Below are positions 13,104-44,063 of a stretch of 64,000 bases of DNA, one piece after another. Made by a program: the position numbers and the translations under genes. Source of the DNA: an uncultured virus (IMG/VR IMGVR_UViG_3300030060_003999) (taxonomy: Duplodnaviria > Heunggongvirae > Uroviricota > Caudoviricetes); the IMG/VR virus record IMGVR_UViG_3300030060_003999, positions 1-64,000 of that record; one strand, written 5' to 3'. Position 1 is the first letter of the stretch; every line of letters begins with the position of its first letter. The notes below the pieces were generated by a model. That model had not been told where the DNA came from. It ran no database searches and worked only from the letters and a program-made list of their open reading frames with translations.

Positions 13104-14257
13104 AAATCCACCTCTTCAAATCTTAAATAAAGTAAAGTTTCATCTATTTCAGGAAACAAAGAATTAGTAAAAGTTATTTCTTGTTTTGCTCCTCTTTCAA
13201 TAGATAACTCATGTATTTCACCCATAAACTGTTTATTTGCAGAAGCCCCGCTATCTGTTTCAGAAATCTGTCCTAATAAACAATTAGTTCGTGCAAAACT
13301 AAAAGATGACTTTTTAGTATGTTCTCCACTAAATACTAATTGTCTGTTATAAAACATAAGAATTGTATTTTTAGTTCCATTGAATGAAACTGCAATATGA
13401 TGCATATTATCAACATAAGTTGGTTCTTTAAGTGTTTCTACATATATTTCAGTTCCATTAGGAATAGTCGCTCCATAAGCACTATTTAAAACAACAGAAG
13501 AACCACCAACAGTATCTACTGTTCCTATTGAAGTATAAGTAAAACCATCTCTAATATATAGTCTTTGACTTGAATAATAAGTATCTGCATGAGTCCTAGT
13601 TGAATGAGTATCTAAATTAAGAGTAGTTCCACTAGTATAACCACTAGTTAATGAACCTACACTATCATAAATTATTCTATCATTAGCGTCAAAGCCCGAA
13701 TAGTTGTAATTAGTATGGGCATCTCCATATTTCCACACCCTGCTGGAACTAGGGCTAATTACTACATCACTCAAGAATGTTTCTTGAGTAGAGCCAATTG
13801 TTAAATAAACTTTAATTTTATATTCAGCAGGTTGATTGTTGTTATTTGTTGTTGCATTAACTAAAGTTATTCTAAAGTTATCATTATGGAATAAACACAT
13901 TTCATGCCCGTATCTATTTGCGACTGGCAGGTATTCCTCGCTCAATTTACCTGCTCCCCCTTGTGGCATGATTCTCTCTCCTGTTTGTAGCGCAGAACGG
14001 CCTCTCAGCCCTGCATTTCCCATGCCATTTATGTCATAGGGTGTGATGATTGCTTCAAAGGTAAAAGAGCCTTCAAGCCCCCATAAGCCATAAGGAATAT
14101 CATCAGTTGTGTCGCTTGGAGTCGCATTTATGTCAGGGATATTCTCACTATAACTAATTAAAAGATGAGAATTACACATTATTGGAAAAACAATACTTTT
14201 TTGTTTACCAATAAAAATATCATACATAATATCACCTTCATGGGAAAATACGAGCAA
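13100..14257 (-). CDS. LamG/concanavalin-like minor tail protein
   Basis: SFTFEAIITP, HHIAVSFNG, QFMGEIHELSI and LLYLRFEE motifs. The likely start is the internal Met after the GGTGA RBS (~14227). Confidence 0.7.
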   Translation of the reverse strand: MLVFSHEGDIMYDIFIGKQKSIVFPIMCNSHLLISYSENIPDINATPSDTTDDIPYGLWGLEGSFTFEAIITPYDINGMGNAGLRGRSALQTGERIMPQGGAGKLSEEYLPVANRYGHEMCLFHNDNFRITLVNATTNNNNQPAEYKIKVYLTIGSTQETFLSDVVISPSSSRVWKYGDAHTNYNYSGFDANDRIIYDSVGSLTSGYTSGTTLNLDTHSTRTHADTYYSSQRLYIRDGFTYTSIGTVDTVGGSSVVLNSAYGATIPNGTEIYVETLKEPTYVDNMHHIAVSFNGTKNTILMFYNRQLVFSGEHTKKSSFSFARTNCLLGQISETDSGASANKQFMGEIHELSIERGAKQEITFTNSLFPEIDETLLYLRFEEVDL

Positions 14258-18715: not shown

Positions 18716-20308
18716 TCACCCCAAAAGGACATAATCGGTAACTACTACGCAAGAATGTAGATTTCTTGGCTTAATAGTGGAACTAAAAGTTACTGGCCCT
18801 TTATCATCAGGAATAGTAATTTCAGTTGTATCAAGGAAATAATCTTTAAATTCTAAAGTAATACTTTCGCTTGTGTCAGGCTTTGTAAAAGTAAAAGTTA
18901 CACGATTAGCCGTAGTGTTTTCTGTTTCATTAAGCATTTCTTTGAATAACATATCATCAGTTACTACTGCTTCAAAAGTAATTTCATATGAGCGTTGTGC
19001 AGGAATACCCTCTTTCATATCTCTATGACCGCCCATATATCTCTTATCTAGTAAGTTATTGTTAATAGCAATACTTACTGAATTAACTTTCAAGAATTGT
19101 TGCCCAAATGCGCTAAATGTTCCTTGAGAGAAAAAGAATGGCGAAGCATGGTCTGTTCCCGCATTAAAGTTAAATAGATTAGCATTGTCTGTTTGACCTG
19201 CTCTTGAAACATAATCCGATGGTGAAACACTAGCAGACCTGTATAAATCAGTAATACTATCAACTAATCTTGCATTCAAATCCATGTTCATTTTTAATTC
19301 TTCACCTTCGGATGCTTCAATAGTTAATGAATTGACTCGGCAACCTCTTGCGATTCTAACAAAGTTATTAGATTCATCAAGACTTGAAGTTGAATCAGTC
19401 GTTAAACTTGCGGGGTCTTTAGCCATTGATTGTTCAAGGCTGAATGAAGGAAGTTGGTCAGTATTAAGTTCTTTAATTGTGTATTGAATATTTTTCGGTC
19501 TTCCGTCAGTATCAAAGTCCACAGTTTGATTATTTGCATTAGTTTCAGGGAAAATAGTAAAATCAACAGGAGGAACAATAGTTGTTCCGCCTTTTACTGT
19601 TCTATAAAAGTGTGGGCCAGTTTCAGTAACTATTGCCACACCATCAGTTGAATTTGCATTTGTTCCTTCAATATAGATTGCATCTGCTGTTCCAGTTGGA
19701 GGTGCATTTCCCGCAGGATAAGTAATTGTTTGATGTGTTTTCCTACCAAAAGTAATAGCGTCCATAGCACCAAAAGCGTAATAAAGCCATGAACCTGTAT
19801 TTGCGACTAAAGCAAGAGAACCGTTATCAGCAGTTCTAATTCCTTTATATTGGAAAGAGAAGTTTCTTGTTCCACCAAGACCAAGATTCATCTGTTTAAT
19901 TTCTTGACTTAGATTAGGGAAAGTTACAGATTCCATCAAACCTAACCAATTATCAGCCAATAAACATTGTCTACCACTTACTTCAGGATGAGGTGAAGGA
20001 GAACCATAAGCCCTTAATAGAGCATGAGTATGACCACTTCCAGAATAAGTAGTTGAAAGAGTAATAGTCCCTGTTGTATTTGAACCAACAGAATGACTTG
20101 AAATTAATGTTCCTGCATTATAAATATCAATAGTGCTTCCAATATAAATATTCGGAACTAACTTAAAAACATCTGAAAATGCCGTATCAGGTGTTAATAC
20201 AGTTGTTGTTATTCCGCCACCCGTTCCATCAACAGGAATAAATATATCCTGTTCTGGAATAAATGTCGTGCTTGCTCCGCTTCCTAAAAATATTTCGTTA
20301 TTTACCAT
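18716..20308 (-). CDS. major tail tube protein
   Basis: LPSFSLEQ, ARGCRVNSLTIEA and INNNL..RY..G motifs; position in the operon. No sheath gene was seen, so the tail is siphovirus-like. Confidence 0.75.
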   Translation of the reverse strand: MVNNEIFLGSGASTTFIPEQDIFIPVDGTGGGITTTVLTPDTAFSDVFKLVPNIYIGSTIDIYNAGTLISSHSVGSNTTGTITLSTTYSGSGHTHALLRAYGSPSPHPEVSGRQCLLADNWLGLMESVTFPNLSQEIKQMNLGLGGTRNFSFQYKGIRTADNGSLALVANTGSWLYYAFGAMDAITFGRKTHQTITYPAGNAPPTGTADAIYIEGTNANSTDGVAIVTETGPHFYRTVKGGTTIVPPVDFTIFPETNANNQTVDFDTDGRPKNIQYTIKELNTDQLPSFSLEQSMAKDPASLTTDSTSSLDESNNFVRIARGCRVNSLTIEASEGEELKMNMDLNARLVDSITDLYRSASVSPSDYVSRAGQTDNANLFNFNAGTDHASPFFFSQGTFSAFGQQFLKVNSVSIAINNNLLDKRYMGGHRDMKEGIPAQRSYEITFEAVVTDDMLFKEMLNETENTTANRVTFTFTKPDTSESITLEFKDYFLDTTEITIPDDKGPVTFSSTIKPRNLHSCVVVTDYVLLG

Positions 20309-21050: not shown

Positions 21051-22357
21051 TCCAAGAAATAAACCAAATCGCCTTTGCCTTTTAAAATATCCATAGCCTC
21101 TTTACGAAGAATATCATACTTTTCTTTTGCAGTAATATTTCCGCCTGTTTCTGCAATCAAAACACTTTGGTCATCCATTCTTATAATTTCAGATGCAACT
21201 AATTTAGTAGTTGCTTCGTGAATAGCAGACGGAACTCTATTGTCTCCCGCAATATAAGAAACAATAATTGAGTTATTAGTATGGTATGGATAATCTCTCA
21301 AAAAGAAGATTCTACCTTCTTCATTTATTGTCCAATAAGAACCAAGTCTTTTCAAGTCTTCTTTATCTGTAAATGCAGTCAAATTACAAACAGTAGGAAT
21401 AGAAGCGTCAGTAGTGAATATTAAATCATTTGTCCCAGTAGCAGAAGCAGGTGCGCTTAATACAACATTTGTTGCATCTGTAATAGAAGCGATAGTAATT
21501 GTTCCTGTAATACCTGTTCCTGTAATTGTCATACCTACGGCTAATTTAGTTGAATCAGCCACAGTAAGAGCAGTAGAACTGTTTATTGTTGAACATGACT
21601 GTTTTATTGTTGCCTTGAGAACACAATCCGAGCCGTCATCGCTCAAAAGTAGGGATGAGATGTTAATTTGCTTGCCATTTGACTTGTCCTTTGAGGCATA
21701 GAAAAAGTCTGAAATAGAGAGATTAGAAGAAGTGAGGGTTTTTACTGCACTTGCACCAGTATATTGTGAAGTTGAAGGAAATTGCTCATTTATTAATGAA
21801 ACAATTTCAGCCGAAGTAGTCTTTACTCCAAAGGTATTACAGAACTCATCGTTCCCTAGTTGTGCAATATCGTTTTCCGATAATAGAGTAAAAGATACTC
21901 CGCTATCTGGTAGTTGTAAAATAATAGAATTCAAATCTCTAAAGTTATCTTGTAAAAGAACTTTAGCCTGTGCTGATGCAATTTCTTCATAGTGGCTTCC
22001 TTGCCACAATTGAAGTGAAACAATCTTACGAACTTTCATTTGTTTTAATTGAATGAAACCAACATAACCACCATAATAATGATTATTTGGGCCTCTTGTA
22101 AATTCAAAGTTATGGTATTCATCTTTTGTAATAATAGGTCTAAAGGAACGCTTTACTTTATCATCCACGATACCTTCTACTCTTTTAATTATAGAACCCA
22201 CTTGAGCAGTAGTAGGATAAGTAGTGCCACTAAAAGCAGGTATTTGTAATAAATTAGCGACTTCTGTTGCATTTGTATAGAAACCACGACCCTGAGTATA
22301 ATTAGGGTTGATTTCTGTAAAATCACTTGGAGAAATTGTTGTTCCCATTTTACTCAC
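21047..22357 (-). CDS. head-tail adaptor/connector protein with inserted beta-domains
   Basis: N-terminal YTNATEVANLL and C-terminal VSYIAGDNRVPSAIHEATTKLVA resemble gp6/gp15-like adaptors; Thr/Gly-rich insert. Confidence 0.65.
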   Translation of the reverse strand: MSKMGTTISPSDFTEINPNYTQGRGFYTNATEVANLLQIPAFSGTTYPTTAQVGSIIKRVEGIVDDKVKRSFRPIITKDEYHNFEFTRGPNNHYYGGYVGFIQLKQMKVRKIVSLQLWQGSHYEEIASAQAKVLLQDNFRDLNSIILQLPDSGVSFTLLSENDIAQLGNDEFCNTFGVKTTSAEIVSLINEQFPSTSQYTGASAVKTLTSSNLSISDFFYASKDKSNGKQINISSLLLSDDGSDCVLKATIKQSCSTINSSTALTVADSTKLAVGMTITGTGITGTITIASITDATNVVLSAPASATGTNDLIFTTDASIPTVCNLTAFTDKEDLKRLGSYWTINEEGRIFFLRDYPYHTNNSIIVSYIAGDNRVPSAIHEATTKLVASEIIRMDDQSVLIAETGGNITAKEKYDILRKEAMDILKGKGDLVYFLD

Positions 22358-24656
22358 CTATCTTTTCTTTTAATACTGATAGGTTTTCTTTTAAGTCTTC
22401 AATGACATTTACCATTTCATCATTTCTTCTTCTTTGCATAGGACTTAAAATGAACTCCCCATGATTGTATATTACCATTTCAATATGCATAATAACAGGG
22501 TCAAAAGCATCTGATATATTAGCATAATAAACTAAAGGATTTATTTGAACCCCTGCACCAGTTACTACGGCTAATGCTTTATCAGTAACTTTTCCAAACT
22601 TATCAGGCTTATCAATAGTAGCCCCCCTTCTCGGTGGTCTTGCTTCTCTTTTACTGCGTAATTCTCTAGCCCTTAATTCTTTAGCATCTGCTTCATCTTC
22701 GGGGTCTAATTCTCTTTCATCATAAACAGGCTCATAAGCACCAAAAGATTCTCTATTTGATTTAAACCTTTTAGCACTAATAACAACTTTTCTTGCAGGT
22801 AAATAATCATCTTCGTTGCCTTTCATGGCTTGAAGTCTATCATATTCTCCTTTGTCAATATATTGCCCAGTAAATCTACTGCCTTCTTGTAATTCAGGGT
22901 TATATCTTCGTTCAAAAGAATATAATTTTTCAGCACTCGCTTTGTCGCTTTTAATCTGCGCTTCGGATTTTTTCTTTCCTTTTGCGTCTACTTCACTTAA
23001 AAATAACTGTCTTCTTTCTTCAATAGACTCTTTCAATTCTTCCGCTTCTTCAGGGCTTAAATTTTTATCTGTTTCTATTATAGATTTTCCATCAGCGTTT
23101 CTTTTTGGTGTATAATATTCTATTTTTTCTGCTTTTTCAGCATAAGCATCTTCGGGAGCATCCTTTAATCTATATTCACGAATTGTTTTATGTGTTGTTG
23201 AAATTTCATTACTAGGAGTTCTTGCTACACTATCTAAACCAATAACATAATAATTAGGAATATATGCCATCTTTTCATCATTTTGTAAAGACATATACGC
23301 ACTATTACTAATTTTCTCCTTTGTATCTTTATTAGTCCATGCTTCTCCTTCAAGTTTCATCATGTCTTCAACTGATGCTTGTCTATATTTACCATCCACT
23401 AATATTTCAATAGATTCAACAAATTGTTCATTTCCTTCTTCATCTCTACCTGCTTTCCAAGTTCTATCACCTTCAAGAAACTTTTCTACTTTACGAGTTA
23501 ATGAATTATTTACAGTAGTTTCTGTCTTAAAATTAACTTCTCCTTTGTAAGTGAGAGCCTTCATAGGGTCAGAAAGCATTGGAGAAAGTTTTTCTTCAAT
23601 TGTTTTTAACATAGGTAAAAATGCTTCCTCAATAGCCTTTAAATTTGATTCGGGAAGACTAACTCTATTATCTCCTTTGGTGGCTTTTTCTCCAACAACT
23701 TGAACTAATCCTTTGTTTTTTAATGTAAAAACATTAAATTCTTGCATAAGTTCTGTTCTATCTGCAAGACCAGCAATACCCAGTTCTATAAATTCTTGAT
23801 GGTCTAATTCTTCTTCTGAACCAGTAGAAGTGAAATCAACTACATTGTTATTGTTATCGGTTTTTTCTTTAACAGGAATAACAGATATTTTAGCACTATC
23901 TTTTAGAGCCTTAATAACCTTTTCAGGTATATCAATTCTCATAGTCTTTGTTATTCTAGGAGGAAAAGATTTAGATTTAGAAGGTCTAAAGTCAGGAGTT
24001 TGACCGCTTTCATCAATTAAATGATTCTTTTTAGATTCAATAATATCTTCTTCGTCATATGGTGATTGAAATACAATGTTTTCTTTACCATAACTAAATC
24101 TAGTCGGTTGCATAGCAGGGTCTTTGTCGGGATTAAATGGAACTTTATCAAATGTTAAAGTAGCATTTACTCCATAGTCTTCATCAGTAAAAGCATCTTT
24201 AACATATTTCTCTATGTCAAATTCAGGTAAGTTCTCAAATGATTGCCCAAACTTTAATGCACCAAATCCTCTTAGTCTGTTTAAAGCATCGGAATCAGAT
24301 AAATCACTTACTTTTAACCCCTCAAGAAAATCAATATTCTCTTGGTTAGTAATTACTTTATTTCTTACTTTACTAGTTGTAAAGTTCTTAATTGCTCCTT
24401 CTCCATCATCATGTCCTCTAATTAGAGGCATGAGTTCATCATTACTAATGTCCTCAAAAATATCTTGAAAAGCATCAAGTAAAGGTTGAGTGTCTTTATT
24501 GTTTTGTTCAAGGTCTTCTAATGCTAACCCTAAATAAGAAATAAATTCAACATTTTCTTCTTGGATAAATTTTAGCATCTGTTCTTTGATTCTATCAGCA
24601 CTAGATGGTAATTCAATTGTTAAATTACCCCAAAGAAAAGAAACCAACCAATTCAC
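22350..24656 (-). CDS. large acidic hypothetical protein
   Basis: 768-aa ORF with GAGGTGA at its start. Confidence 0.6.
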   Translation of the reverse strand: MNWLVSFLWGNLTIELPSSADRIKEQMLKFIQEENVEFISYLGLALEDLEQNNKDTQPLLDAFQDIFEDISNDELMPLIRGHDDGEGAIKNFTTSKVRNKVITNQENIDFLEGLKVSDLSDSDALNRLRGFGALKFGQSFENLPEFDIEKYVKDAFTDEDYGVNATLTFDKVPFNPDKDPAMQPTRFSYGKENIVFQSPYDEEDIIESKKNHLIDESGQTPDFRPSKSKSFPPRITKTMRIDIPEKVIKALKDSAKISVIPVKEKTDNNNNVVDFTSTGSEEELDHQEFIELGIAGLADRTELMQEFNVFTLKNKGLVQVVGEKATKGDNRVSLPESNLKAIEEAFLPMLKTIEEKLSPMLSDPMKALTYKGEVNFKTETTVNNSLTRKVEKFLEGDRTWKAGRDEEGNEQFVESIEILVDGKYRQASVEDMMKLEGEAWTNKDTKEKISNSAYMSLQNDEKMAYIPNYYVIGLDSVARTPSNEISTTHKTIREYRLKDAPEDAYAEKAEKIEYYTPKRNADGKSIIETDKNLSPEEAEELKESIEERRQLFLSEVDAKGKKKSEAQIKSDKASAEKLYSFERRYNPELQEGSRFTGQYIDKGEYDRLQAMKGNEDDYLPARKVVISAKRFKSNRESFGAYEPVYDERELDPEDEADAKELRARELRSKREARPPRRGATIDKPDKFGKVTDKALAVVTGAGVQINPLVYYANISDAFDPVIMHIEMVIYNHGEFILSPMQRRRNDEMVNVIEDLKENLSVLKEKIGE

Positions 24657-24657
24657 C

Positions 24658-25296
24658 TCACATTAACCATTTTGCCCATGCAGCAGTTTTTTGTATTGCT
24701 GAACCTAAATGTAATCCGCTTTGCGGTGGTTCATAACTCATTTGTCCTTGAGCATCAATCCAATAAGGACGGCCATATCCGTCTGTTCCGCTTGGAGGAA
24801 CAGGATAACCTGAACCATTATTCATAGCACCCTGCATTTGGTTATATTGTTGAGTTTGACCCGTTATTCCAGCAATCGCCATACCTGCCGATGGTGCGCC
24901 ACCAAACCCTTGAGATTCTAAGTATTGTTGCTTCGCCATCTTTCGTTGATTAACGACTTCTGTATTGATTGCTGATTGTAATAGGTTTTGTAAGTCTAAA
25001 TCAATGTTTTCTTGAGTAATTCTTTCGTATTCTCTCAAAGCATCTCTATTGATAGTAATTGATGAACCGCTAGTATCAAAAGAAAGTTTTGCGAGCATTT
25101 GTGAAACAACACGCTCAATAACATCTTCCATTAGTTTTTCAAGGGCGGCTAAAAAGTGTTCACCATGATATTGAAAAAATTCTTCTACATGATTATCTTG
25201 TAAAGATAATAAGTTGTTCATTGATTTAAAATTTTGGTCGCCCTGTTGTTGAACTGCACCTAAAACTGTTCCGTTACTTGTTCCTAATATTCCCAT
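24658..25296 (-). CDS. hypothetical protein (helical core, Gln/Gly/Pro-rich tail, amphipathic C-terminus)
   Basis: ORF track; GGAGG RBS; ends ...SAIQKTAAWAKWLM. Confidence 0.65.
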   Translation of the reverse strand: MGILGTSNGTVLGAVQQQGDQNFKSMNNLLSLQDNHVEEFFQYHGEHFLAALEKLMEDVIERVVSQMLAKLSFDTSGSSITINRDALREYERITQENIDLDLQNLLQSAINTEVVNQRKMAKQQYLESQGFGGAPSAGMAIAGITGQTQQYNQMQGAMNNGSGYPVPPSGTDGYGRPYWIDAQGQMSYEPPQSGLHLGSAIQKTAAWAKWLM

Positions 25297-25298
25297 GA

Positions 25299-25967
25299 TT
25301 ATTCCTCCTTAATTTGTTTTTCTTCGGGTTCATCATTAACGGCTTCTATTTGGTGCTTTAACATCAAATGTCCTAATCTGTCAGTCATTATGTTAATTTC
25401 AGTTATTAGTTGAATGACTTCTTGGGTTGCCGTCCTGTTATCTGCTAAAGCGGGTGGCTTAATAAACCAACCGCTTGCAGTAAGAGCAATTACATCTTTT
25501 TTGGTTAATTCAGTAATTGGCCCAGTTTTCATCATCTTTGGCATTTTAGGAACAAATCGTTTAAACTCTAGTCCATGTTTATCAGCCAGTATTTGTTGTT
25601 GAAGCATCTCTAATTGCATATACATAGCGGAATGTTTAGGACAGTATGTTCCCAAAAGAGGTCTACCCTTAATTACACCATCTAAAGGAATTGGCGGTCT
25701 TAAGTAATCTCCTTGTTCCCAAACATGATGCATTCCACAAACAACACATCTATCTTTTAGATTGAATTTCTTACTATATTTAATTCCTAAAAACTTCTTA
25801 GGTTCAGCAGTTAAAACTTTAGTAAGTTCTTTGAGTTGTTTTTTTGGTTTAATTTCAGTAAACTTATATTCTACAACAGCCCCACTAGCCCTAGCCTGTT
25901 GTAATGGCGTTAAAGTGGGGTTAAACTGTTGCGGTGCGTTCTGTCCTATTAATTGGTTTTGATACAT
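25299..25967 (-). CDS. hypothetical zinc-finger protein
   Basis: CVVCG and YCPKH metal-binding pairs; follows the GTPase gene. Confidence 0.65.
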   Translation of the reverse strand: MYQNQLIGQNAPQQFNPTLTPLQQARASGAVVEYKFTEIKPKKQLKELTKVLTAEPKKFLGIKYSKKFNLKDRCVVCGMHHVWEQGDYLRPPIPLDGVIKGRPLLGTYCPKHSAMYMQLEMLQQQILADKHGLEFKRFVPKMPKMMKTGPITELTKKDVIALTASGWFIKPPALADNRTATQEVIQLITEINIMTDRLGHLMLKHQIEAVNDEPEEKQIKEE

Positions 25968-25976
25968 CTTTATTCC

Positions 25977-26645
25977 TCAGTAATCTTTTATCATTGTCAT
26001 TACGCCTCTATATACCATTTCGGGGTCTGACTTTGCTGAAACTATATATTTGAAGCATGGTATTCCTTTATCATTTAATTGCCTCATTCCGTATGTAAAG
26101 GGGTCAAAGATTTCATGTTTATCTATGGTTTGTCCTTCTTCTAATGGATATTTTTCTCCCCATATATCATATTTATTAGCCCATATTCCTACTGCCATCG
26201 GATAATCTGGTTCTCTTTTCTTTCTCCCAGTAGGCCAAAAATCTGAACATATTGTATCAACTAAAAATTTCCATGCTACTTGATGGTCTAAGTTTGAATT
26301 ATTGTCTAAATGCCTATGGTCTATCATAAAAATAATATATTTTACTTTACGCTTTTGCATATCTTTTACCCATTCTTTCCAGTAAATTGCTTCTCCTCCA
26401 ATATCAGCACTTTTTATTGTATGTGAATCTCCATCTATTTTAACATTTTTTCTTGAGGCTCTATGTAATCCAACCGTTCTTTCTTGTATTGTCGGCACTT
26501 CTCCCCTTGTTCTTAATTGATGACTTAATGTTGTTTTACCAACCATTGTTGCTCCATAAACTCCAAAATTAATTGCATGAACTTTCTTCCAAAAACCAAT
26601 TACTGCTTCGCCAACTAATATGGCGAATCCTGTCATTAATGACAT
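25977..26645 (-). CDS. small Ras-superfamily GTPase (Arf/Sar-like)
   Basis: G1 GATMVGKT, G2 RTVG, G3 DIGG, G4 NKYD, G5 SAK; N-terminal hydrophobic/amphipathic helix. Confidence 0.9.
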   Translation of the reverse strand: MSLMTGFAILVGEAVIGFWKKVHAINFGVYGATMVGKTTLSHQLRTRGEVPTIQERTVGLHRASRKNVKIDGDSHTIKSADIGGEAIYWKEWVKDMQKRKVKYIIFMIDHRHLDNNSNLDHQVAWKFLVDTICSDFWPTGRKKREPDYPMAVGIWANKYDIWGEKYPLEEGQTIDKHEIFDPFTYGMRQLNDKGIPCFKYIVSAKSDPEMVYRGVMTMIKDY

Positions 26646-26864
26646 TTAATGCCCCCATATTCCTTTCACCGCATCAATAATCCATCCCATGATGTTTATA
26701 TCAAAAACACCCATGATGTTTCCGATAAGAAACATTGAAAGCGTGGAGAATGTTCCCCAAAACCACGCTCTCATCTTTAAAAAAAATACATCAGCAGAAT
26801 GCGCTCTTGATTGATTATATGCGTAATCCGAGTCGGAAAAACCCATTAAATCACTAAGAACCAT
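26646..26864 (-). CDS. small membrane protein
   Basis: Hydrophobic C-terminal half (WFWGTFSTLSMFLIGNIMG..IMGWIIDAVKGIW). Confidence 0.7.
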   Translation of the reverse strand: MVLSDLMGFSDSDYAYNQSRAHSADVFFLKMRAWFWGTFSTLSMFLIGNIMGVFDINIMGWIIDAVKGIWGH

Positions 26865-26877
26865 TTAACCTACCCCT

Positions 26878-27273
26878 TTACTGGAGTGTGGCTAAAAATT
26901 CACTTCCAACGGAATTAACTTCTTCTTCTTGTTGTAATTGAGGTTGATAGAAAGGTGTTGCACCACCAAACTGTCTTGCGCTTTCACGCATTTTTTGTCT
27001 TTGTTGCTCATCTCTTGCTTTTCTTTCCCAATAAGCAGCAATCTTTCTATCTAGTAGCCACATCTCAATTCTATCATTAAGTGCTAAATCAAAAATTGCT
27101 TTCATTACCATGATTGCACCAATTGTTCCTAAGCCAAATAAGAAGGCATGAGCAAATGAACCATAAGGGAAATTAGTTCCAAATTGAGCATAAGCCCAAA
27201 CATTTGTTCCACTTAATGCCCCAACAAAAAGAATTGTCATAACTAAACGGGTATCTGTATTTAATGCTGCCAT
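26878..27273 (-). CDS. two-TM membrane protein with a coiled C-terminus
   Basis: Two hydrophobic segments followed by a charged, Gln-rich tail. Confidence 0.7.
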   Translation of the reverse strand: MAALNTDTRLVMTILFVGALSGTNVWAYAQFGTNFPYGSFAHAFLFGLGTIGAIMVMKAIFDLALNDRIEMWLLDRKIAAYWERKARDEQQRQKMRESARQFGGATPFYQPQLQQEEEVNSVGSEFLATLQ

Positions 27274-28331: not shown

Positions 28332-29693
28332 TCACAGCAAATTGGTAATCTTTCCTTGACCCTTGAAGTAAGAACAACCAACTTCACCAATAGTTCGGTA
28401 AAGAGCCTTGTTTCCAAGATGGCCGACACCGAATGGGTTTCCGTTTGAAATACCATCTTCAAAGTATTGAGTTGGCTTCATAACAGATAACCAAAGATGG
28501 TCTGTATCAAGTAGTAGCATATCGCTAATACAAGAAGTATTAGCACCAGTTGAAGGCATAGCCGCAACAGGAATCATAGGAATGTCGTAATAAGTAGAAA
28601 CTCTAAATCCGACTTCTTGACCCTTAACACCACGAACACCATTAACAGTAGGAACAATCTCCTTTCTATCCATGAATCGCTCTTGTGCTTGTAATAGGTC
28701 AGAAATGGTTTGAAGTGTATCATATCCAGTTAGAATAACCTTTGGTGAACCACCTGCAACTCTCAAATCTCTAAGCGTAGAGTTTAGAACAGTAAGAGTC
28801 AAAGAACGAGCATTTCCACTAGCATATCCGACTCCACCGAAATTAACCTGTGCATCAAGGAAAGAAGCAGCACTACGAGCCTTACCGTAAATAGTTTCAA
28901 TAGCAGCAACACCTGAGTTTGATGCAGTTAGAACAGTTCCAGATGCCATAGCGTCTAATTCTCCCTTAGAAGAAACAACCTTCATCAAAGAAGTATAGTT
29001 TCTTTGAATGTTAGCGATTTGGTTTGTAGCCTGTAAATTGTAGTTTTCAAGAGGCATAACGAGCATAGCGTTTTGAGTTTCAGCATGGTGCTTACCCATG
29101 TCTTCTCTCATTTGCGCTCTAATATCGCCAATTCCATCGTCAATTTGCGCCATTTCCATAGCCAATTCGCTGAATTCAAATTGATGAGCAACAATCTTTG
29201 GGCTAGTGAACAATTGCTCGTATTTAGGAGCAACAGACGCTAAACCATCAGCAGCAGTTGAAAGTGCTGCATTTTCAGGAACACCACCCAATAAGTCAGG
29301 TCGCATTGTATTTGAACCAATAGTTGCTTCAGATGTGGCTTCATTTACACCAGTCAAATTAAGGAAATTACCGCTACCACCAGCAGGTCGCTCGCTTAGA
29401 ACTCTCCAACCGCTTGAAGTGTAAGGTCTTTTAGCAATAACTGAAAGAGCATTACATTCCCTGTTTAGCATAGACCAGACTTTTTGGCCGTAAATCTTGT
29501 TATACAAAGCACCAAGCGAACTTGCTGCTCCTGCGGAATTAGTGCTTGATACACCAATTGATGCATCATGCCCAGTATGCAAACCTGCAATAGAACCTGC
29601 TTGCTTGAGCAATTGGTTGTTAATGCCTGTATGACCAGTAATTCCGTATGTTTGTGCTTCTAAATCTCCAATCGTGTTAATATATCCTGTCAT
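28332..29693 (-). CDS. major capsid protein (HK97 fold)
   Basis: Follows the prohead protease; GGVPENA, PKIVAH.FE.SE, GGSPKVILTG and YYDIPMI motifs resemble archaeal tailed-virus capsid proteins. Confidence 0.85.
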   Translation of the reverse strand: MTGYINTIGDLEAQTYGITGHTGINNQLLKQAGSIAGLHTGHDASIGVSSTNSAGAASSLGALYNKIYGQKVWSMLNRECNALSVIAKRPYTSSGWRVLSERPAGGSGNFLNLTGVNEATSEATIGSNTMRPDLLGGVPENAALSTAADGLASVAPKYEQLFTSPKIVAHQFEFSELAMEMAQIDDGIGDIRAQMREDMGKHHAETQNAMLVMPLENYNLQATNQIANIQRNYTSLMKVVSSKGELDAMASGTVLTASNSGVAAIETIYGKARSAASFLDAQVNFGGVGYASGNARSLTLTVLNSTLRDLRVAGGSPKVILTGYDTLQTISDLLQAQERFMDRKEIVPTVNGVRGVKGQEVGFRVSTYYDIPMIPVAAMPSTGANTSCISDMLLLDTDHLWLSVMKPTQYFEDGISNGNPFGVGHLGNKALYRTIGEVGCSYFKGQGKITNLL

Positions 29694-29704
29694 GTTAAAT
29701 CACC

Positions 29705-30910
29705 TCAGTTAAATCCTCCAACCATCTTATGAATGTCTGACCAATCCATTTCGGCCAATTCTTCCATTGTTGGGAGTTGTATTGCGGATTCTTCTTGTGC
29801 CTTTAGGATTGTTTCCTTTTCAGCAGTCAAAGACTTCCTTAGTGCAGTAAATTCTTCCTTTAGAGAAGAAATTTCGCTTTGAGCGTCATATTGGGACTTT
29901 GCGAGAACATTCTCACGGTTAGCCTTTTCATGTGCAAAGCGGTTTTCAAATTGCTTTTGAAGATTGTCGTAAGCCAACTTTTCAAGTTGTTCTTGGCGGA
30001 AAGCCTCATAAGCCTTCTCAATGTTAGCAACGCTCAAATCAAGCGTTTCTAGTTCATTGTTGCCGAATGCCTTAACAACTGGCAAATCGGATGGTTTAGG
30101 GTTTCCGTTATCAATAACGATTCTGTTAGCAGGTTCGCCAATTTCAACACCTGCACCATCAAGAGTAGGTAAAAGGGCTTTGTTTTCTTCATCAGAATAA
30201 TCGCCTTTTTCTGCTTCGGGCATCATGTCTTCTTCATTATCCATGTATTCGCCACCCATCTTTTCTTCTTCGGGCATTTGCTTTTCTTCTTCTTCTTCTT
30301 CCTTACGGAGAGTATTTACCTCAGCCATAAGTGCGTCTAGTTCTTCTAGTGCTTTTTCAATTTTACTCATAGTTTTCACCTTTTTTGTTTTTGTTTTGTC
30401 TTGTTTTAGAATATCAAATCTTGCTTCTGGGTTTATTCCTTTTTCGCATATTGTTACTTCGTGCAGTTCAAGTTTGCTTATTTCATTAAATTCGCCTAAT
30501 TCTGGATGGCTTTTCTTTACTTTTTGTAATGCTTGTCCTCCAATACTAAACGACCTTAATGAACCTTTACGAATGCCTCTATTTATTTCTTTGGCTTTTT
30601 CAATATCATCTCTTAATTTAATAACAACAAAGAATCCAACATCATCAACTTCTGTTTTCCACAATCTCCCTGTTTTATCTCTATATGATTTTACTACTTC
30701 CCCAACTTGAACATTTGAATGATTTGTCATTACATTTCTAAACTTAGGGTTCTCCATATATTTGTTTACTGCTTCATTAAGAGCCTTGAGTGTAATTAAG
30801 TCATTTTGTTTATCAACGATTTCAATGCTTGCATATCCTCCAATCATCAAGTCGTCGCTTTTTAGAATCCTGAAATCATGGGTATTGTTTGACATAACCG
30901 CAGATGACAT
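29705..30910 (-). CDS. prohead maturation protease (HK97 gp4-like) fused to a scaffold domain
   Basis: IGGYAS..IVDKQND, catalytic His (TNHS) and Ser (RSFSIGG), LHEVTICEKGINPEA; acidic coiled-coil C-terminus. Confidence 0.9.
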   Translation of the reverse strand: MSSAVMSNNTHDFRILKSDDLMIGGYASIEIVDKQNDLITLKALNEAVNKYMENPKFRNVMTNHSNVQVGEVVKSYRDKTGRLWKTEVDDVGFFVVIKLRDDIEKAKEINRGIRKGSLRSFSIGGQALQKVKKSHPELGEFNEISKLELHEVTICEKGINPEARFDILKQDKTKTKKVKTMSKIEKALEELDALMAEVNTLRKEEEEEEKQMPEEEKMGGEYMDNEEDMMPEAEKGDYSDEENKALLPTLDGAGVEIGEPANRIVIDNGNPKPSDLPVVKAFGNNELETLDLSVANIEKAYEAFRQEQLEKLAYDNLQKQFENRFAHEKANRENVLAKSQYDAQSEISSLKEEFTALRKSLTAEKETILKAQEESAIQLPTMEELAEMDWSDIHKMVGGFN

Positions 30911-30954: not shown

Positions 30955-33477
30955 CTAATCTTCGGTAGGAATGGTTAATTTATTATACCTACTTTCGTAT
31001 ATATTCCACTTTCCTTCATCCCCTTCCTTATCAGCAGGAGTTTGTTTATATCCAGTCCATGTTAGCCACATTGGTTTATTATCAATAGGAATGACCCTAA
31101 AGTGCATTTTAGTTTCAAACTTATTACCTTTCAAGAAATATTCATGGTAGCCTTCTTTTTGAACACCAAGTTCAATATCTCCCGAATCAATAACTTTCCC
31201 TCTTTCAATATTCTTTGAAACTTCTGCTGGATATTTGCCAGCAGCACCGAACAAATCAAATAACTCTTCTTCTCCTTCTAAATCAATAGTCCAATTTAAA
31301 ATTTCATCATTAATACTGATAGATAAGTGAACATTATTGTCTTTACGGTTGTAAATTTTAAATTTACCGTTTCTATATTCTTTAGGAGTCTTATATTCTT
31401 TTTTAATTTCTTCTTCTTCGGCTAATTTAATTGAAGGGTCAGCATGTAATTTATTATTTATCATGCTAATATGTTCTCTTTCTTGTGCCCAATCACCAAT
31501 CTTTCTTAATTTAGATTCTAATACAGTTTCATATAATTCTGTAAATTTATCTTTTAAGTATTCATGGACTTCTTTAGGAGTTCTATCTCCTTTATCTTGT
31601 AAGAAATTGACAATAGCAACAGTTAATTCACCTTGCTTTGTTTTCATTATTTCTTCTGCTTGAGCCTTCCACATATCAATATCTCTTAAAGCATTTTTAG
31701 ACATTAAATTATTCTCTTCAAAACCATAAATAACAAATCCGCCAGTATCATATTTAATGATGGCAGTAGTTTCACCATGTATATTATCTGTTATCTTTAC
31801 TCCTTTTTTAAAGGCTTCAACATCATAATTCAAAGACTTCTTAGTATCTTGCGATAATAACTCAAGAGTAACTAATTTATCAGGATGCTCAACTTCAGGT
31901 ATTTCAATAACTTTAGCGGAGAATAAACTATATCCTTCTCCTTTCTTCTTTACTTCATCAACCTTTACTCTAATAATATCGCCAATGTCCACAGCAACCT
32001 TAGTATTTAGGGCTTTACCGACATTAAGATATTTTCTACCATCAATCTCTTTTCCTTCCATATCTTCAGGGATTGGCCCAACACCAACAGTATAAGAATA
32101 AAGATTGCTCTTAGTCTTTTTCTTATCTAACACAATAACATCTAAATCAACAAACTTTTTCATTTTAATCCACTTAGGATTCTTTTTTGTTCCTAGATAA
32201 TAAGTTGAAGTAGCGTCTTTAATCACAACTCCTTCAGAAGTAGGCATTTCCATAATTTGTTTTGCATACTCTTCTAAATCTTTAAGACTATCAGCCTGTC
32301 TTGTATCTTTCTTAGAAGGGAAATTTAAGAATTCCGATGATTTCGCAGCGTAATTATTGAATAAAATAGTCATTCTATTTTCTAATTCTTCATCAAGTAA
32401 TGTCTGCGCTTCATGTCGCATAATGTCAAACACATGGCATTTTAGTTTAGCATCTTTGTATTTGCCTTTGAACACATGAGCGATTGTATCAGCACGATGT
32501 AATGGTTCTTCACCATCAAAAAGAATTAACTCCGCATCAAACATACAGTTGCCATATTCTTTTTTCTTTAACTCTTTGACAATTTCATCACATTTATCTG
32601 TAATATCTTTCTCATTATAAGAATAGACTTTGACTTTATTATCTATTTTGTGCAACTGAATACGCATACCATCATATTTTTCTTGAATATACCAATTACC
32701 ACTAAATCCTTTTAATTCATTAATATCATCAATTTCAAAGATACGATACATGGGTTTGTTTGGAATAACGAAATCAGTAACAGATTTTTCTTTTTCTGAT
32801 TTAGTTTCGGACTTTTGCATATCAATGTCTTTAAGGTTTGCCCATTCTTCTTCTTCATGTTGAGAAAAGAAAATAAGTTCTAACATATCAAGAGCAGCCT
32901 TTACTTTCTTTTCAACCTTCTTTGAGTCTTTTCCATCCCCGTAATGCTCAATAATATACAGGGGTATATCGTCCACTTCTAGGTCAAGACCCACAAGACC
33001 CTCCGTAATTGTGTCGGGTTGCATATCTTTAATGGCTAAAACATCATCAGATAATGCTTTATTGTCTTCCCTCATAGCATAATGCACAAATTTAACCATT
33101 GTTTCAGGATTATCTAATAATTCTTCAAGAACATTCCCTTTAAACATATCAGCGAAAGGGTCAGCAATAATTTTTGAGTTATACCTTACTAGTTTAATTT
33201 TATCAAAAAGGTTCTTTGCTTTAGATGATTTAGGGTCTTTTACTTCAGTAGCAGTTATTTCTTCTTCTCTAAGGAAGTTCTTTAATTCTTTACCTGCTGC
33301 ATCTAATTCATCATAGGATTCTTCAATCATTTCAACGGCTTTACGCCAACGCCCCGAATATTCATCGGGGTCGTGAACTGCTGATAAATATGCAACTCTC
33401 GTCTTTTCAAAAAGGCGCATCAACTCAATAGAGGGTTGCCTATCCTTTTCAATAGAACCGAGTTTCAATAATACCAC
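30955..33477 (-). CDS. ATP-dependent DNA ligase with N- and C-terminal extensions
   Basis: Motif I QEKYDGMR, FDAEL, VFDI, EGVVIKD and WIKMK, followed by an OB domain. Confidence 0.9.
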   Translation of the reverse strand: MVLLKLGSIEKDRQPSIELMRLFEKTRVAYLSAVHDPDEYSGRWRKAVEMIEESYDELDAAGKELKNFLREEEITATEVKDPKSSKAKNLFDKIKLVRYNSKIIADPFADMFKGNVLEELLDNPETMVKFVHYAMREDNKALSDDVLAIKDMQPDTITEGLVGLDLEVDDIPLYIIEHYGDGKDSKKVEKKVKAALDMLELIFFSQHEEEEWANLKDIDMQKSETKSEKEKSVTDFVIPNKPMYRIFEIDDINELKGFSGNWYIQEKYDGMRIQLHKIDNKVKVYSYNEKDITDKCDEIVKELKKKEYGNCMFDAELILFDGEEPLHRADTIAHVFKGKYKDAKLKCHVFDIMRHEAQTLLDEELENRMTILFNNYAAKSSEFLNFPSKKDTRQADSLKDLEEYAKQIMEMPTSEGVVIKDATSTYYLGTKKNPKWIKMKKFVDLDVIVLDKKKTKSNLYSYTVGVGPIPEDMEGKEIDGRKYLNVGKALNTKVAVDIGDIIRVKVDEVKKKGEGYSLFSAKVIEIPEVEHPDKLVTLELLSQDTKKSLNYDVEAFKKGVKITDNIHGETTAIIKYDTGGFVIYGFEENNLMSKNALRDIDMWKAQAEEIMKTKQGELTVAIVNFLQDKGDRTPKEVHEYLKDKFTELYETVLESKLRKIGDWAQEREHISMINNKLHADPSIKLAEEEEIKKEYKTPKEYRNGKFKIYNRKDNNVHLSISINDEILNWTIDLEGEEELFDLFGAAGKYPAEVSKNIERGKVIDSGDIELGVQKEGYHEYFLKGNKFETKMHFRVIPIDNKPMWLTWTGYKQTPADKEGDEGKWNIYESRYNKLTIPTED

Positions 33478-36820: not shown

Positions 36821-37141
36821 TCACCTATTATCTCTTACTTGAATTGCTCCAACTTCTATATTTCCTTGAGTTCCGATAAGTAATTCAATTAGTTGTTCTT
36901 CACTATAAGAACCAATTACATCCATTACTTTGTCCATTAAATCTTCACGGGTAGCATTGGCTAATTCCTCTCTTTCTTGCCTATCTTCATCTGTTTCAGC
37001 AAAAGGATTTCCAGTATCTCTACCAAGTCTAGGACTTTTTCCACCTACAAGTTTAGTTTGAGGCTTTCTACGCTCAGGCGCACGATTACGCCTATTAGGG
37101 TCTAATTCTCTTTTTTCTTTAATTATTGTTCTCCAATCCAT
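36821..37141 (-). CDS. hypothetical protein with N-terminal W-motif
   Basis: MDWRTIIKE. Confidence 0.65.
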   Translation of the reverse strand: MDWRTIIKEKRELDPNRRNRAPERRKPQTKLVGGKSPRLGRDTGNPFAETDEDRQEREELANATREDLMDKVMDVIGSYSEEQLIELLIGTQGNIEVGAIQVRDNR

Positions 37142-38781
37142 TAACCCACTCTCCTTTCGGTTCTTTTGTCATTGTTTTGATTTCCCGCATCAAGAGGTAA
37201 TCCTGTCATGCGCTTGTCTGGTGCTTGATTCATTGAAGGCTTATTTCTAGTTGTCGCAGGGTTCTCCTGTGGCTTACCTCCCTGTAATGCTTGTTCTTGC
37301 ATTTGTCCTAATTGAGAAGCATCAATGTTTGTTCCCGCATATGGGTCTTTATCAACTGGTTTATCTCCTTCTCCGCCACCTTCAGGATTTTCTTCAGGTT
37401 CAGGCTTTTTAAAAGTAAATTGCCCATCTTCGTCCATATCAACTTCAAATCCTAAGTTCTTAACAGATGCAGCAATATTGACTTCAATCTCACGCTTACG
37501 AAGAACAGCAATTTCATCTTCTTCTTCGCTTGGTGGTAATTTTAAGTTCCAATCAGTAATACCAAATTGCTTTACAAGGAACGGGAAAACATAATTATTA
37601 TAGACAGTTTGTGCTTTTTGAACTGCTCTATTTGTTACGAGGATTTGCATACCTTCATTGTTTAATCCACCGCTTGTAGTATTATCAGCCATAAAGACTT
37701 TACTTACACCATAGAACGCTGAAATTCTATCTCGTAAATCATCCTTAACAGAAACATAATCCATTTCTTTTAGACTATCCATGAATTTAATCCATTCAAC
37801 TGCACCCTTTCCGCCTTCTGCTTCTATTCCCATAACAGGAATAAAATGTGGGTCTGCTTCCATCTTTTCTTTTACGCCTCTCCAAAAAGAACGCATTGAA
37901 TCCATATTTCTTGTTTGAACTGCAAGTAATCCTCTTGGCATACGACTCTTAGTATAAGATGAATTAACATAGTTTTCCATAGCAATTAATGTCATAATTG
38001 CATTAAACAAAGTAACAACTGGTGATTGTCCATAAAGACGAGAAGGACTGTATTTACTAAAGTGAAGAACTTCTCCCTCAATATAATACTGGTCTTCTCC
38101 CATAGCCCTATTCACATAATGAACTGGATATAATTTACTTCCGCATACATCACAATTTTCGTGTGGTTCAGTAGATAATATATGACGATGATTAACACAA
38201 GTAAATCCTTTAGTTCCTCTTTGTCCTAACTCATCAGTATAAATAAACATAGTTGTCGGGTCGCCTCTATACAACTCTTTTATTCTATGCATCCTTATAT
38301 CTTGATTACCGTCTAAGAAATACTCTTTTACCATAACAATGTAAGCATCATCCATAATATTCAAATCATCTTCTAGTTCTTGTAAAACATCAATAAATAG
38401 TTGTTCGGATTTATTTACATATCCTTCAATAAACTTCTCAGCATATTCTAATTGCTTTACATCAGGAACTTGTAAATTAGTGCTTTTACAACGAGAACAT
38501 TCTTGAACAGGTCTTTTATGTTCTTTTCCACATTCTTTACACCTTGCTTCATATGCTTTTTCCCATATGTAGCCTCTTCGGAAAACTTCTTGTTTTAGTT
38601 GAGTAATACAAGTTCTACCAATTACTGACTGATTCATTACATTATACAATAATGGGCCAGTCATCATATGACGGTTTTCTCTTTCTTGAATACCCATATT
38701 ATATACGGTTCTATCCGCAGGTTTAGGAGTTTGTCGCCTAAACAAGTTAGTAAAAGAAAATCTTCTTTTTCCATCTGCCAT
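37141..38781 (-). CDS. portal protein with zinc-ribbon insertions
   Basis: EVLHF...RLYGQSP, MPRGLL and RISAFYGVS portal motifs; lies between terminase and protease. Confidence 0.85.
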   Translation of the reverse strand: MADGKRRFSFTNLFRRQTPKPADRTVYNMGIQERENRHMMTGPLLYNVMNQSVIGRTCITQLKQEVFRRGYIWEKAYEARCKECGKEHKRPVQECSRCKSTNLQVPDVKQLEYAEKFIEGYVNKSEQLFIDVLQELEDDLNIMDDAYIVMVKEYFLDGNQDIRMHRIKELYRGDPTTMFIYTDELGQRGTKGFTCVNHRHILSTEPHENCDVCGSKLYPVHYVNRAMGEDQYYIEGEVLHFSKYSPSRLYGQSPVVTLFNAIMTLIAMENYVNSSYTKSRMPRGLLAVQTRNMDSMRSFWRGVKEKMEADPHFIPVMGIEAEGGKGAVEWIKFMDSLKEMDYVSVKDDLRDRISAFYGVSKVFMADNTTSGGLNNEGMQILVTNRAVQKAQTVYNNYVFPFLVKQFGITDWNLKLPPSEEEDEIAVLRKREIEVNIAASVKNLGFEVDMDEDGQFTFKKPEPEENPEGGGEGDKPVDKDPYAGTNIDASQLGQMQEQALQGGKPQENPATTRNKPSMNQAPDKRMTGLPLDAGNQNNDKRTERRVG

Positions 38782-43305: not shown

Positions 43306-44063
43306 TATCTCTTCCCCTGAAACATCTTATCTTTATTTTTAGGTTCAATTAATTTAATATCCGAATGAATAGAAGCACCACGAACATTACACCTAATTAA
43401 AGTAACTCCTTGTGCTTTGGCTAATTTAGTTAAATCAACGCCTCTAAAATCACAATCCTCAAAAGTTACTCTAGTCATTTTAGCCCCTGTAAAATTAGCC
43501 CGACTAAAGTTGCATAACTTAATTACTCCTGAAGGGTCTTCCTTTCTATAAAAACCAAATTGAGCCTTTTTAAAACTAGAACCCTTAAAAGAAATTCTTT
43601 TTAATCTAATAGGAGTTCTTCTTTTTCCTTCCTTCATTGTGAATTTTCCACTCGCACTAGGCTTTGGAGAAGGTTTATCATAATCTAATTCATATTCTCC
43701 TTTTTTTCTTTGTCCTGCTTGAGCAACTCCTTCAAACTTAGATTTACCAGTTCTACCATATTTATTGCTTTCTTTGGCTTCTTTAGGAGTAACTCTTTGT
43801 TCAACTAAGCGACCTCTTTCATCTTTTTTTGGAGAATATTGCATTTCAGTATATTTGGTTTCCTTTAAACGACTCATATCTTTTCCGTTAAATATTTCTC
43901 CGTCAAAGTTTTTATTATCCATCATTATATATTGTCCAGCAGGTAGTGTTCCGCTAAACCTTTCTTTTCTATTATGCAGTCCTTCAACATGGCCTTCATC
44001 AGATACTTTACGCTTAGTGGCTTCCACTCTATCCCACTTTCTTTTTAGAATATCTTGCCACAT
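43305..44063 (-). CDS. W-motif protein with C-terminal pentapeptide repeats
   Basis: MWQDILK; SSFKK AQF, CNFSR ANFTG AKMTR VTFED CDFRG VDLT. Confidence 0.75.
   Translation of the reverse strand: MWQDILKRKWDRVEATKRKVSDEGHVEGLHNRKERFSGTLPAGQYIMMDNKNFDGEIFNGKDMSRLKETKYTEMQYSPKKDERGRLVEQRVTPKEAKESNKYGRTGKSKFEGVAQAGQRKKGEYELDYDKPSPKPSASGKFTMKEGKRRTPIRLKRISFKGSSFKKAQFGFYRKEDPSGVIKLCNFSRANFTGAKMTRVTFEDCDFRGVDLTKLAKAQGVTLIRCNVRGASIHSDIKLIEPKNKDKMFQGKR

Follow-up and report, generated by a model that had tools for sequence, protein, structure and literature searches.

A Conserved Five-Gene Block Encoding a Divergent Arf-Like GTPase and Putative Membrane Partners in a Magrovirus-Type Virus

The DNA analyzed here, referred to as the window, is a stretch of 64,000 nucleotides (positions 1 to 64,000) of the IMG/VR record IMGVR_UViG_3300030060_003999, an uncultured tailed virus (Caudoviricetes). 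On its minus strand, at 24658-27273, five tightly packed genes encode a divergent Arf-like small GTPase, two small membrane proteins, a Cys/His protein, and a helical protein. The neighbors stay with the GTPase in the relatives of this virus, and the order recurs in two deeper lineages. We infer, with slightly more confidence than doubt, that the five genes constitute one virus-specific unit organized around a membrane-anchored Arf-like GTP switch and acting late in infection at the host membrane. The block had been picked out in an earlier note, prepared by a model from the sequence alone, and its open reading frame (ORF) coordinates proved exact. The five genes, with protein lengths in amino acids (aa) and the basis of each assignment, are as follows:

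26878..27273, minus strand: TM131, 131-aa membrane protein (ORF, hydropathy)
26646..26864, minus strand: TM72, 72-aa membrane protein (ORF, hydropathy)
25977..26645, minus strand: divergent Arf-like small GTPase, 222 aa (motifs, profile, AlphaFold2 (AF2) model)
25299..25967, minus strand: Cys/His protein Zn222, 222 aa (ORF, alignment A2)
24658..25296, minus strand: hel212, 212-aa helical Gln/Gly/Pro-rich protein (ORF, alignment A3)

The intergenic gaps within the block are 13, 0, 9, and 2 nt, and those to the flanking genes 9 and 1 nt. The tight packing of the two upstream membrane proteins with the GTPase, claimed in the note, was thus borne out (gaps of 13 and 0 nt, hydrophobic segments visible by hydropathy), the TM72 stop codon abutting the GTPase start. 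All five genes are under purifying selection, with ratios of nonsynonymous to synonymous differences (pN/pS) of 0.146 for the GTPase, 0.21 for TM131, 0.23 for TM72, 0.26 for Zn222, and 0.23 for hel212, against 0.34 for the capsid gene. These values come from 16-80 relatives per gene, and with pS of 0.54-0.71, near saturation, their ranking alone is meaningful; it places the GTPase as the slowest-evolving gene of the neighborhood. Chance ORFs or decaying genes were ruled out by GTPase motifs retained in 119/119 close homologues, by pN/pS of 0.15-0.26, and by hundreds of syntenic loci.

Directly downstream of the cassette (22350-24656, minus strand) lies the gene of p768, a 768-aa Lys/Glu-rich protein and by far the most variable product of the neighborhood. 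It was detected in 30/80 related loci, is 23-58% identical where found, and has no Pfam or PHROGs match.

The earlier note had made its proposal depend on the neighbors being conserved with the GTPase across relatives, and they are. Among the best 80 of 263 confirmed IMG/VR loci of this lineage (lineage 1) found via the GTPase, TM72 was present in 79, TM131 in 78, Zn222 in 76, and hel212 in 73, with most misses at contig ends. Because this set had been chosen by GTPase similarity, the analysis was repeated from the capsid protein, using the best 80 of 592 confirmed loci, of which 33 extend at least 4.5 kb downstream. All five genes were found in 33/33 loci of sufficient reach. In the same 33/33 loci the GTPase was more similar to its counterpart in the window than was the capsid protein (median identity 85 vs 71%), despite a sampling that favors the capsid. 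The order in lineage 1 runs protease, capsid, three small ORFs, TM131, TM72, GTPase, Zn222, hel212, a variable large protein, p436, p74, p162, and a tube-like protein. In some relatives extra ORFs of ~100-200 aa separate the GTPase from TM72 or from Zn222, and the order remains unbroken.

Several of these inserted ORFs share an N-terminal heptad, M-W-x-x-[IV]-L-K (MWQDILK, MWQEILK, MWKKILK, MWFNILK, and similar), that is common to otherwise unrelated ORFs. In the window it occurs at 43305-44063, 44798-45052, and 51931-52239, all on the minus strand, one of the products being a pentapeptide-repeat protein. In the loci of relatives it was seen at L005:6666-7235, L008:5445-5996, L019:6675-7133, L026:3300-3590, L029:6666-6965, L059:5056-5691 and 5706-5999, and L073:5711-6001. 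The heptad may tag proteins for targeting or packaging, or it may mark mobile accessory genes.

Two deeper lineages show the same arrangement. Lineage 2 was represented by 80 of 127 confirmed loci, in which the GTPase is 32-35% identical to the present one by blastp; homology between the lineage 1 and lineage 2 GTPases was assigned at 99.9%. Upstream of the GTPase lie a membrane protein of ~180-220 aa (78/80) and another of ~81 aa (79/80), and downstream a Cys/His homologue of ~300-340 aa (80/80), a Gln/Gly/Met-rich protein of ~200 aa (69/80), and a third small membrane protein (76/80). The flanks differ: a homologue of the window ORF 51260-51934 lies ~2 kb downstream there, as against ~25 kb from the GTPase here. 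In lineage 3 (2 of 4 loci inspected, 45-52% G+C) a membrane protein, a small membrane protein, the GTPase, a Cys/His protein, and a Gln-rich protein follow a chaperonin gene. Zn222 is related to the lineage 2 protein downstream of the GTPase (profile-profile comparison, 93.5%, E 2.4e-7) and to lineage 3 proteins (blastp, 1e-5 and 2e-4), hel212 has matches in lineage 3 (blastp, 2e-7 and 3e-4), and the lineage 2 membrane proteins are related to those of lineage 3. Since cross-lineage homology is firm for the GTPase and the Cys/His protein, and undetected or partial for the others, the firm core of the block at the level of sequence comparison is this pair, the rest being conserved in position and architecture.

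The note's reading of the central gene as a complete GTPase with motifs G1-G5, RTVG, and DIGG followed by Glu was verified letter by letter. The motifs, with their retention counted over 119 full-length close homologues, and the putative N-terminal anchor are listed below:

26532..26555, minus strand: G1 (P-loop) GATMVGKT, residues 31-38; kept in 119/119
residues 56-59: RTVG; RT[IV]G in 116/119
26370..26405, minus strand: G3 (switch II) DIGGE (81-85)...W92; G3 and Trp at +11 from Asp in 119/119
26166..26177, minus strand: G4 NKYD, residues 157-160, guanine specificity; kept in 119/119
residues 203-205: G5 SAK; kept in 117/119
26589..26639, minus strand: putative N-terminal hydrophobic anchor, residues 3-19 LMTGFAILVGEAVIGFW, then KK

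The motif series of the Ras superfamily (TRAFAC P-loop), namely G1 GxxxxGK[ST], switch I Thr, G3 DxxG, G4 NKxD, and G5 SAx, is thereby present in order, and in alignment A1 (20 sequences) G31, G36, K37, T39, D81, G84, and D109 are invariant. We take the spacing DxGG[Q/H]-x6-W to be of the Arf/Sar type, with DxGGQ and a Trp 11 residues after the Asp as the Arf switch II signature. The Glu after DxGG is fixed in 119/119 close homologues, and in deeper relatives this position is occupied by Gln, His, Ala, or Glu. The replacement of the catalytic Gln with Glu suggests altered, perhaps partner-dependent, GTP hydrolysis.

Motifs, family profile, AF2 model, and structural neighbors agree with the note that this is a genuine Arf/Sar-like small GTPase; it is Arf-like in predicted fold and switch II signature, yet fails the curated Arf sequence model. 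The sub-threshold Pfam matches are MMR_HSR1, Roc, SRPRB (E 0.015), and Ras, the best label being PF01926, and NCBIfam small_GTP gives 19.9 bits vs a cut-off of 42.5. Pfam Arf does match 6/20 family members, two of them above the cut-off of 22.3 bits: P0169 (57 bits, E 1.9e-15) and P0168 (27 bits, E 3e-6). With phmmer the single GTPase found 0 matches among PDB sequences, and it was the A1 family profile, not the single sequence, that reached Ras-superfamily chains (Rab33B, KRas, and HRas at E ~1e-10).

The AF2 model of the GTPase has a mean predicted local distance difference test score (pLDDT) of 86 and a predicted template modeling score (pTM) of 0.84. Foldseek E-values fail to separate Rab, Ras, and Arf, and template modeling scores (TM-scores) favor Arf6, Arl1, and Arf1. 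After re-alignment of the 1000 best chains, 48 of the 50 best solved chains were Arf/Arl (Z 16.7-18.4), the best rows having a root-mean-square deviation of 2.2-2.6 over ~162 residues. The top matches are GTP-type conformations and include the Asgard proteins GerdArfR1 and HodArfR1. A RagA-like chain ranks 39 and a mimivirus Rab 50, so that the Arf margin over other families amounts to ~1-2 Z units.

There are 401 homologues of the GTPase at E<=1e-3, many of them on contigs of 85-96 kb. When 1.84 billion cluster representatives were searched exhaustively with phmmer, 64 proteins emerged at E <= 1e-3, and the family is therefore narrow. No match was found by tblastn in the INPHARED phage collection, and IMG/VR held no locus for the distant relatives P0169, P0168, P0142, and P0132. 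P0169, the bridge to Pfam Arf, comes from a 1.6-kb contig, and a word-based search revealed no other homologue of it. A genome collection with one genome per species for 185,579 prokaryote species gave a single match, 92% identical, on a 12,200-base contig (L241) in a metagenome-assembled genome labelled Maricaulis sp.; the contig carries the same virus genes and is most likely a mis-binned magrovirus fragment.

The N-terminus departs from what had been proposed. The note described an amphipathic helix, and residues 3-19 turned out to be strongly hydrophobic with a low helical moment (Eisenberg hydrophobicity H 0.69, hydrophobic moment muH 0.18), not classically amphipathic. The AF2 model places a helix at residues 2-22 with low confidence (pLDDT 49-62). 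A comparable hydrophobic segment, defined as a best 15-residue window with Kyte-Doolittle (KD) hydropathy >= 1.1, was found in 17/20 aligned family members, mostly followed by basic residues. The segment looks like a short membrane anchor.

For the two upstream partners the membrane segments were called by hydropathy only, in Kyte-Doolittle windows of 19 residues. TM131 has two hydrophobic segments (~10-28 and ~39-61; up to 1.48 and 1.95), followed by a Lys/Arg/Glu-rich helix and a Gln-rich tail. In TM72 an acidic N-terminal stretch of 30 residues precedes one hydrophobic stretch (~35-66; up to 1.67). Neither TM131 nor TM72 matched a holin family in Pfam, PHROGs, or NCBIfam; holins are very diverse, and a holin-like action is still compatible with this result.

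The downstream protein Zn222 has a conserved core at residues 44-159 with two Cys/His motifs:

25737-25748: CVVC, residues 74-77
25632-25643: CPKH, residues 109-112

In alignment A2, which covers the three lineages, C74, G78, G101, T107, Y108, C109, P140, and P143 are invariant and H112 nearly so, whereas the second Cys shifts from +3 to +5/+7 in other lineages. Of the "zinc finger" named in the earlier note, the CxxC...CPxH set (C74, C77, C109, H112) stands and is mostly conserved; it fits a small metal site, and zinc as the metal is presumed. A complex prediction of the GTPase (20-222) and Zn222 (40-222) with GTP/Mg scored 0.00 vs a mark of 0.32, and given the uncertain fold of Zn222 itself this counts as evidence neither way. 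The last partner, hel212, has a helical first part, a Gln/Gly/Pro-rich second half, and a C-terminal AIQKxAAWAKWLM. The helical character ascribed to it was retained; its C-terminus is weakly amphipathic (muH 0.20-0.34) and conserved in this lineage only (alignment A3).

Neither Zn222 nor hel212 could be tied to a known family by more sensitive means: their profiles gave nothing below E 0.15 against PDB sequences, and in the ESM Atlas their best scores were 0.84-0.85, with no family. GTPase-activating protein (GAP), guanine nucleotide exchange factor (GEF), roadblock, or ESCRT-III-like families were not recognizable among the partners in Pfam, PHROGs, NCBIfam, or PDB sequence profiles.

Altogether, these results suggest the following scheme. 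The block is probably made late in infection because it is placed in the late structural operon. The GTPase would be attached to the host membrane on its cytoplasmic side and would, in its GTP form, organize or gate a complex with the two membrane proteins. Zinc-finger ArfGAPs and haloarchaeal ArvC provide the analogy for Zn222, which may regulate the GTPase or act as its effector, tuning the nucleotide cycle. The result would be a change in the host membrane serving either virion release (timed lysis or other egress) or membrane-associated assembly. Release is the most attractive of these, by analogy only, because Pfam shows no lysin or holin family in the scanned ORFs of this genome, egress of tailed archaeal viruses is unexplained, and in Haloferax an Arf-like GTPase with a zinc-ribbon operon partner drives vesicle budding. 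The earlier note had proposed membrane remodeling for egress or lysis, vesicle formation, or membrane-anchored assembly, and such outcomes can be no more than inferred from the present data. A bolder version, which we regard as rather doubtful, would make the cassette a self-contained GTP-gated egress machine replacing the holin-endolysin pair: the anchored GTPase would time and drive membrane rupture or remodeling by two holin-like proteins, with the zinc protein as a GAP-like timer. If true, it would be the first Arf-type membrane machine from a virus of prokaryotes.

A number of results weigh against a membrane unit of five cooperating genes. The GTPase has no match to Pfam Arf (PF00025) at E <= 0.1. 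Its hydrophobic segment of ~17 residues contains a Glu, is modeled with low confidence, and might instead pack against the GTPase itself. Pfam, PHROGs, and NCBIfam offer no family for any of the four partners, and the AF2 model of Zn222 (19-row alignment, pLDDT 48.7) is unusable. The similarity of hel212 to the lineage 2 protein in the same position is not significant, and the membrane proteins of lineages 1 and 2 share position and architecture with no significant similarity. The OapC/ArvC family PF09845 was not found in the six-frame translated genome at E <= 0.01, controls including H. volcanii giving matches. Finally, the block stands within a long run of tightly packed structural genes, and proximity alone is compatible with a part in head or neck assembly.

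Three other explanations of the block were considered. TM131, TM72, and hel212 could be packaged in the virion head and, at the time of infection, build a channel across the host envelope in the manner of T7 and P22 internal proteins, with the GTPase as an assembly factor or an injected effector. The ejection-protein genes of T7 and P22 adjoin head and tail genes, and the present block lies among head and tail genes too, followed by the large and highly variable p768; in lineage 2 a protein of ~1600 residues precedes it. We nevertheless hold this explanation to be unlikely. No recognizable capsid or tail genes adjoin the block in lineages 2 and 3, a nucleotide switch would have no energy source inside the virion, and such proteins usually evolve fast, whereas the block genes are more conserved than the capsid protein. 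About equally improbable is a role in host takeover or exclusion at the membrane, either a block of superinfection or the hijacking of a membrane or secretion pathway (e.g., an SR-beta-like anchor acting on protein targeting). In its favor, the GTPase seems to be anchored in the membrane and weakly matches Pfam SRPRB (the query at E 0.015; 7/20 family members), and exclusion systems typically include small membrane proteins. Genes of this kind are usually early, variable, and dispensable, however, whereas the block is universal (33/33), slow-evolving, and set in a structural operon. Conservation above that of the capsid, together with linkage that survives changes of the flanks, argues weakly against both explanations.

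Less likely still is a soluble morphogenesis factor, in which the GTPase and two soluble partners would aid head maturation or head-tail joining as a GTP-timed chaperone. The N-terminus would then pack inward or on a partner, and the membrane proteins would be unrelated neighbors. The location of the block between capsid and tail-tube-like genes in this lineage agrees with such a factor, and magroviruses carry other chaperones, e.g., the Cpn60/TCP-1 gene of this genome. The membrane proteins, however, stay with the GTPase even where capsid genes are not adjacent, and we know of no tailed-virus assembly GTPase of the Ras superfamily. A membrane-associated unit acting late in infection is the explanation that we prefer.

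By its gene content the virus is of the magrovirus type and infects Marine Group II archaea; it is not a haloarchaeal virus. The assignment was made because the GTPase shares 76% identity with a hypothetical protein from Poseidoniales virus YSH_150918 and has homologues on contigs of 85-96 kb. The haloarchaeal framing of the earlier note does not fit the host of this Marine Group II virus of 33% G+C (30-40% along the window), and ArvA serves as an analogy only. The IMG/VR record has 96,885 bases and is rated 100% complete; in the window, almost all genes are on the minus strand. The features of magroviruses (Magrovirales) are all present: ~90-100 kb, HK97-type capsid, portal, terminase, PolB, RFC-like ATPase, chaperonin, and a pair of ATP-dependent ligases, of which one lies among the structural genes. 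The genes assigned in the structural module are the following:

40616-42049: terminase (Pfam/PHROGs)
37141-38781: portal (Pfam/PHROGs)
30955-33477, minus strand: ATP-dependent DNA ligase domain in an 840-aa protein, between portal-side genes and the prohead protease
29705-30910: prohead protease (Pfam/PHROGs)
28332-29693: HK97-type major capsid protein (Pfam and PHROGs)
18716-20308: tail-tube-like protein (Pfam and PHROGs)

The note had located the GTPase block between capsid and neck genes. The capsid and a tail-tube-like gene are confirmed as its surroundings by Pfam/PHROGs, and the supposed neck genes carry no annotation. The position of the ligase agrees with a passage of PMC5434244, where the magrovirus ligase is "embedded in the structural module".

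The note's statement that no holin or endolysin is recognizable in the window was upheld by Pfam for the scanned ORFs. No lysin or holin family was found in 15 ORFs (72-840 aa) around the cassette, in 26 others in the window (100 aa or longer), or in 35 ORFs of at least 90 aa elsewhere, small ORFs in the rest of the genome lying outside the scan. A sigma-70 promoter scan gave 42 sites vs 41.6 expected, and such a scan has nothing to say about a virus of archaea.

The remainder of the genome includes a replication module with a UvrD-like helicase, ribonucleotide reductase, ThiF, JAB, a Cpn60/TCP-1 chaperonin, a second ligase (L242:18735 onward), an RFC-like ATPase, pieces of a family B polymerase, and a Cas4-like nuclease. 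The ThiF-family (E1-like) and JAB-domain proteins are encoded close together (L242:11386-11985 and 13112-13750; genome 75386-77750) and possibly form a ubiquitin-like modification pair. The family B DNA polymerase domains are spread over two ORFs ~800 bp apart (L243:7251-8879 and 9694-10596; genome 91251-94596), and the gene may be split or may bear an intein or another insert. At the left end of the window, at 151-840 on the plus strand, opposite to the structural genes, an ERCC4 (XPF/Hef-type) nuclease with helix-hairpin-helix domains is encoded, and a tRNA-Leu gene (anticodon TAA) is situated at 63676-63760 on the plus strand.

Neither the conserved cassette nor its possible role seems to have been described before. 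The word "GTPase" does not occur in the main text and two supplementary files of PMC5434244, nor in the main texts of PMC11706807, PMC10160649, PMC7318539, and PMC8651126; an annotation could still stand in the tables that supplement the magrovirus papers of 2023 and 2025, outside this search. The preprint on archaeal Arf-related proteins (10.1101/2024.02.28.582541) contains "virus" 0 times, and among the papers listed by full-text searches on magroviruses, on small GTPases and archaeal viruses, and on GTPases and Marine Group II viruses no title or abstract concerned such a cassette. The GTPase call itself is not new, because the automatic annotation of the Joint Genome Institute (JGI) already names some homologues "GTPase SAR1 family protein". 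According to PMC5434244, magroviruses are among the most abundant viruses of the ocean, and their hosts are uncultured. A 2024 review calls the main players in the exit of tailed archaeal viruses completely uncharacterized (PMC10791045). Five small expressible proteins offer a concrete entry to this open question.

Compared with known systems, the viral GTPase shares several features with the Arf family (eukaryotic Arf1, Arf6, Arl1, Arl3, Arl6, and Arl8; Asgard GerdArfR1, PDB 8OUM, and HodArfR1, PDB 8OUK): motifs G1-G5, DxGG with the Trp at +11, and a helix before the G domain. It differs in being ~14-20% identical to those chains, in having Ser instead of Gly as residue 2 and Glu for the catalytic Gln, in ~40 extra residues, mostly in loops, in its hydrophobic N-terminus, and in coming from a virus whose host is a non-Asgard archaeon. 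The preprint cited above (10.1101/2024.02.28.582541) sees the defining Arf feature in an amphipathic N-terminal helix that GTP binding releases. The viral GTPase matches this element in part, with a helix predicted at 2-22 in which residues 3-19 are hydrophobic and of low moment.

In SR-beta, a hydrophobic N-terminal anchor fixes an Arf-related GTPase in the membrane, and the viral protein resembles it in the weak SRPRB matches (E 0.015 for the query, 8e-5 for P0168), none of which reaches the Pfam cut-off. The block lacks an SR-alpha-like partner, and SR-beta is absent among the top 50 structural matches. Phage holin/antiholin cassettes bring together, in a late operon, the genes of small proteins that have one or two membrane segments and charged tails. 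The block is like them in its small membrane proteins and in that no other lysis gene is recognizable in the genome, and unlike them in lacking a holin family match and an endolysin; we know of no holin system with a small GTPase. The mimivirus Rab (PDB 5XC5; rank 50, Z 16.6) is likewise a virus-encoded small GTPase, but it is a Rab of a eukaryotic virus engaged with host vesicle traffic, whereas here an Arf-like protein of a tailed archaeal virus comes with membrane partners of its own.

A further parallel is offered by ArvA-ArvB-ArvC (OapABC) of Haloferax volcanii. As described in PMC10927574, ArvA is an Arf-like GTPase with an N-terminal helix that drives vesicle formation in Haloferax together with its operon partners ArvB and the zinc-ribbon protein ArvC. 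Both systems combine an Arf-like GTPase bearing an N-terminal hydrophobic helix with small partner genes and one Cys-based zinc (in the virus, putative) protein, and PF01926 is the best Pfam label in both. They differ in that the operon, as that paper describes it, has no membrane-protein genes, whereas the virus block has two. None of 19 Cys/His proteins matched PF09845 in Pfam at E <= 10, and DUF2073 (ArvB) did not appear in the Pfam scans of the neighbors, which included no search by accession. The relation between the haloarchaeal system and the viral cassette is best taken as an analogy. With this cassette, viruses of non-Asgard archaea would be added to the carriers of Arf-like GTPases that have dedicated partners; beside haloarchaeal ArvA (PMC10927574), it bears on the spread of GTPase-driven membrane mechanics outside eukaryotes.

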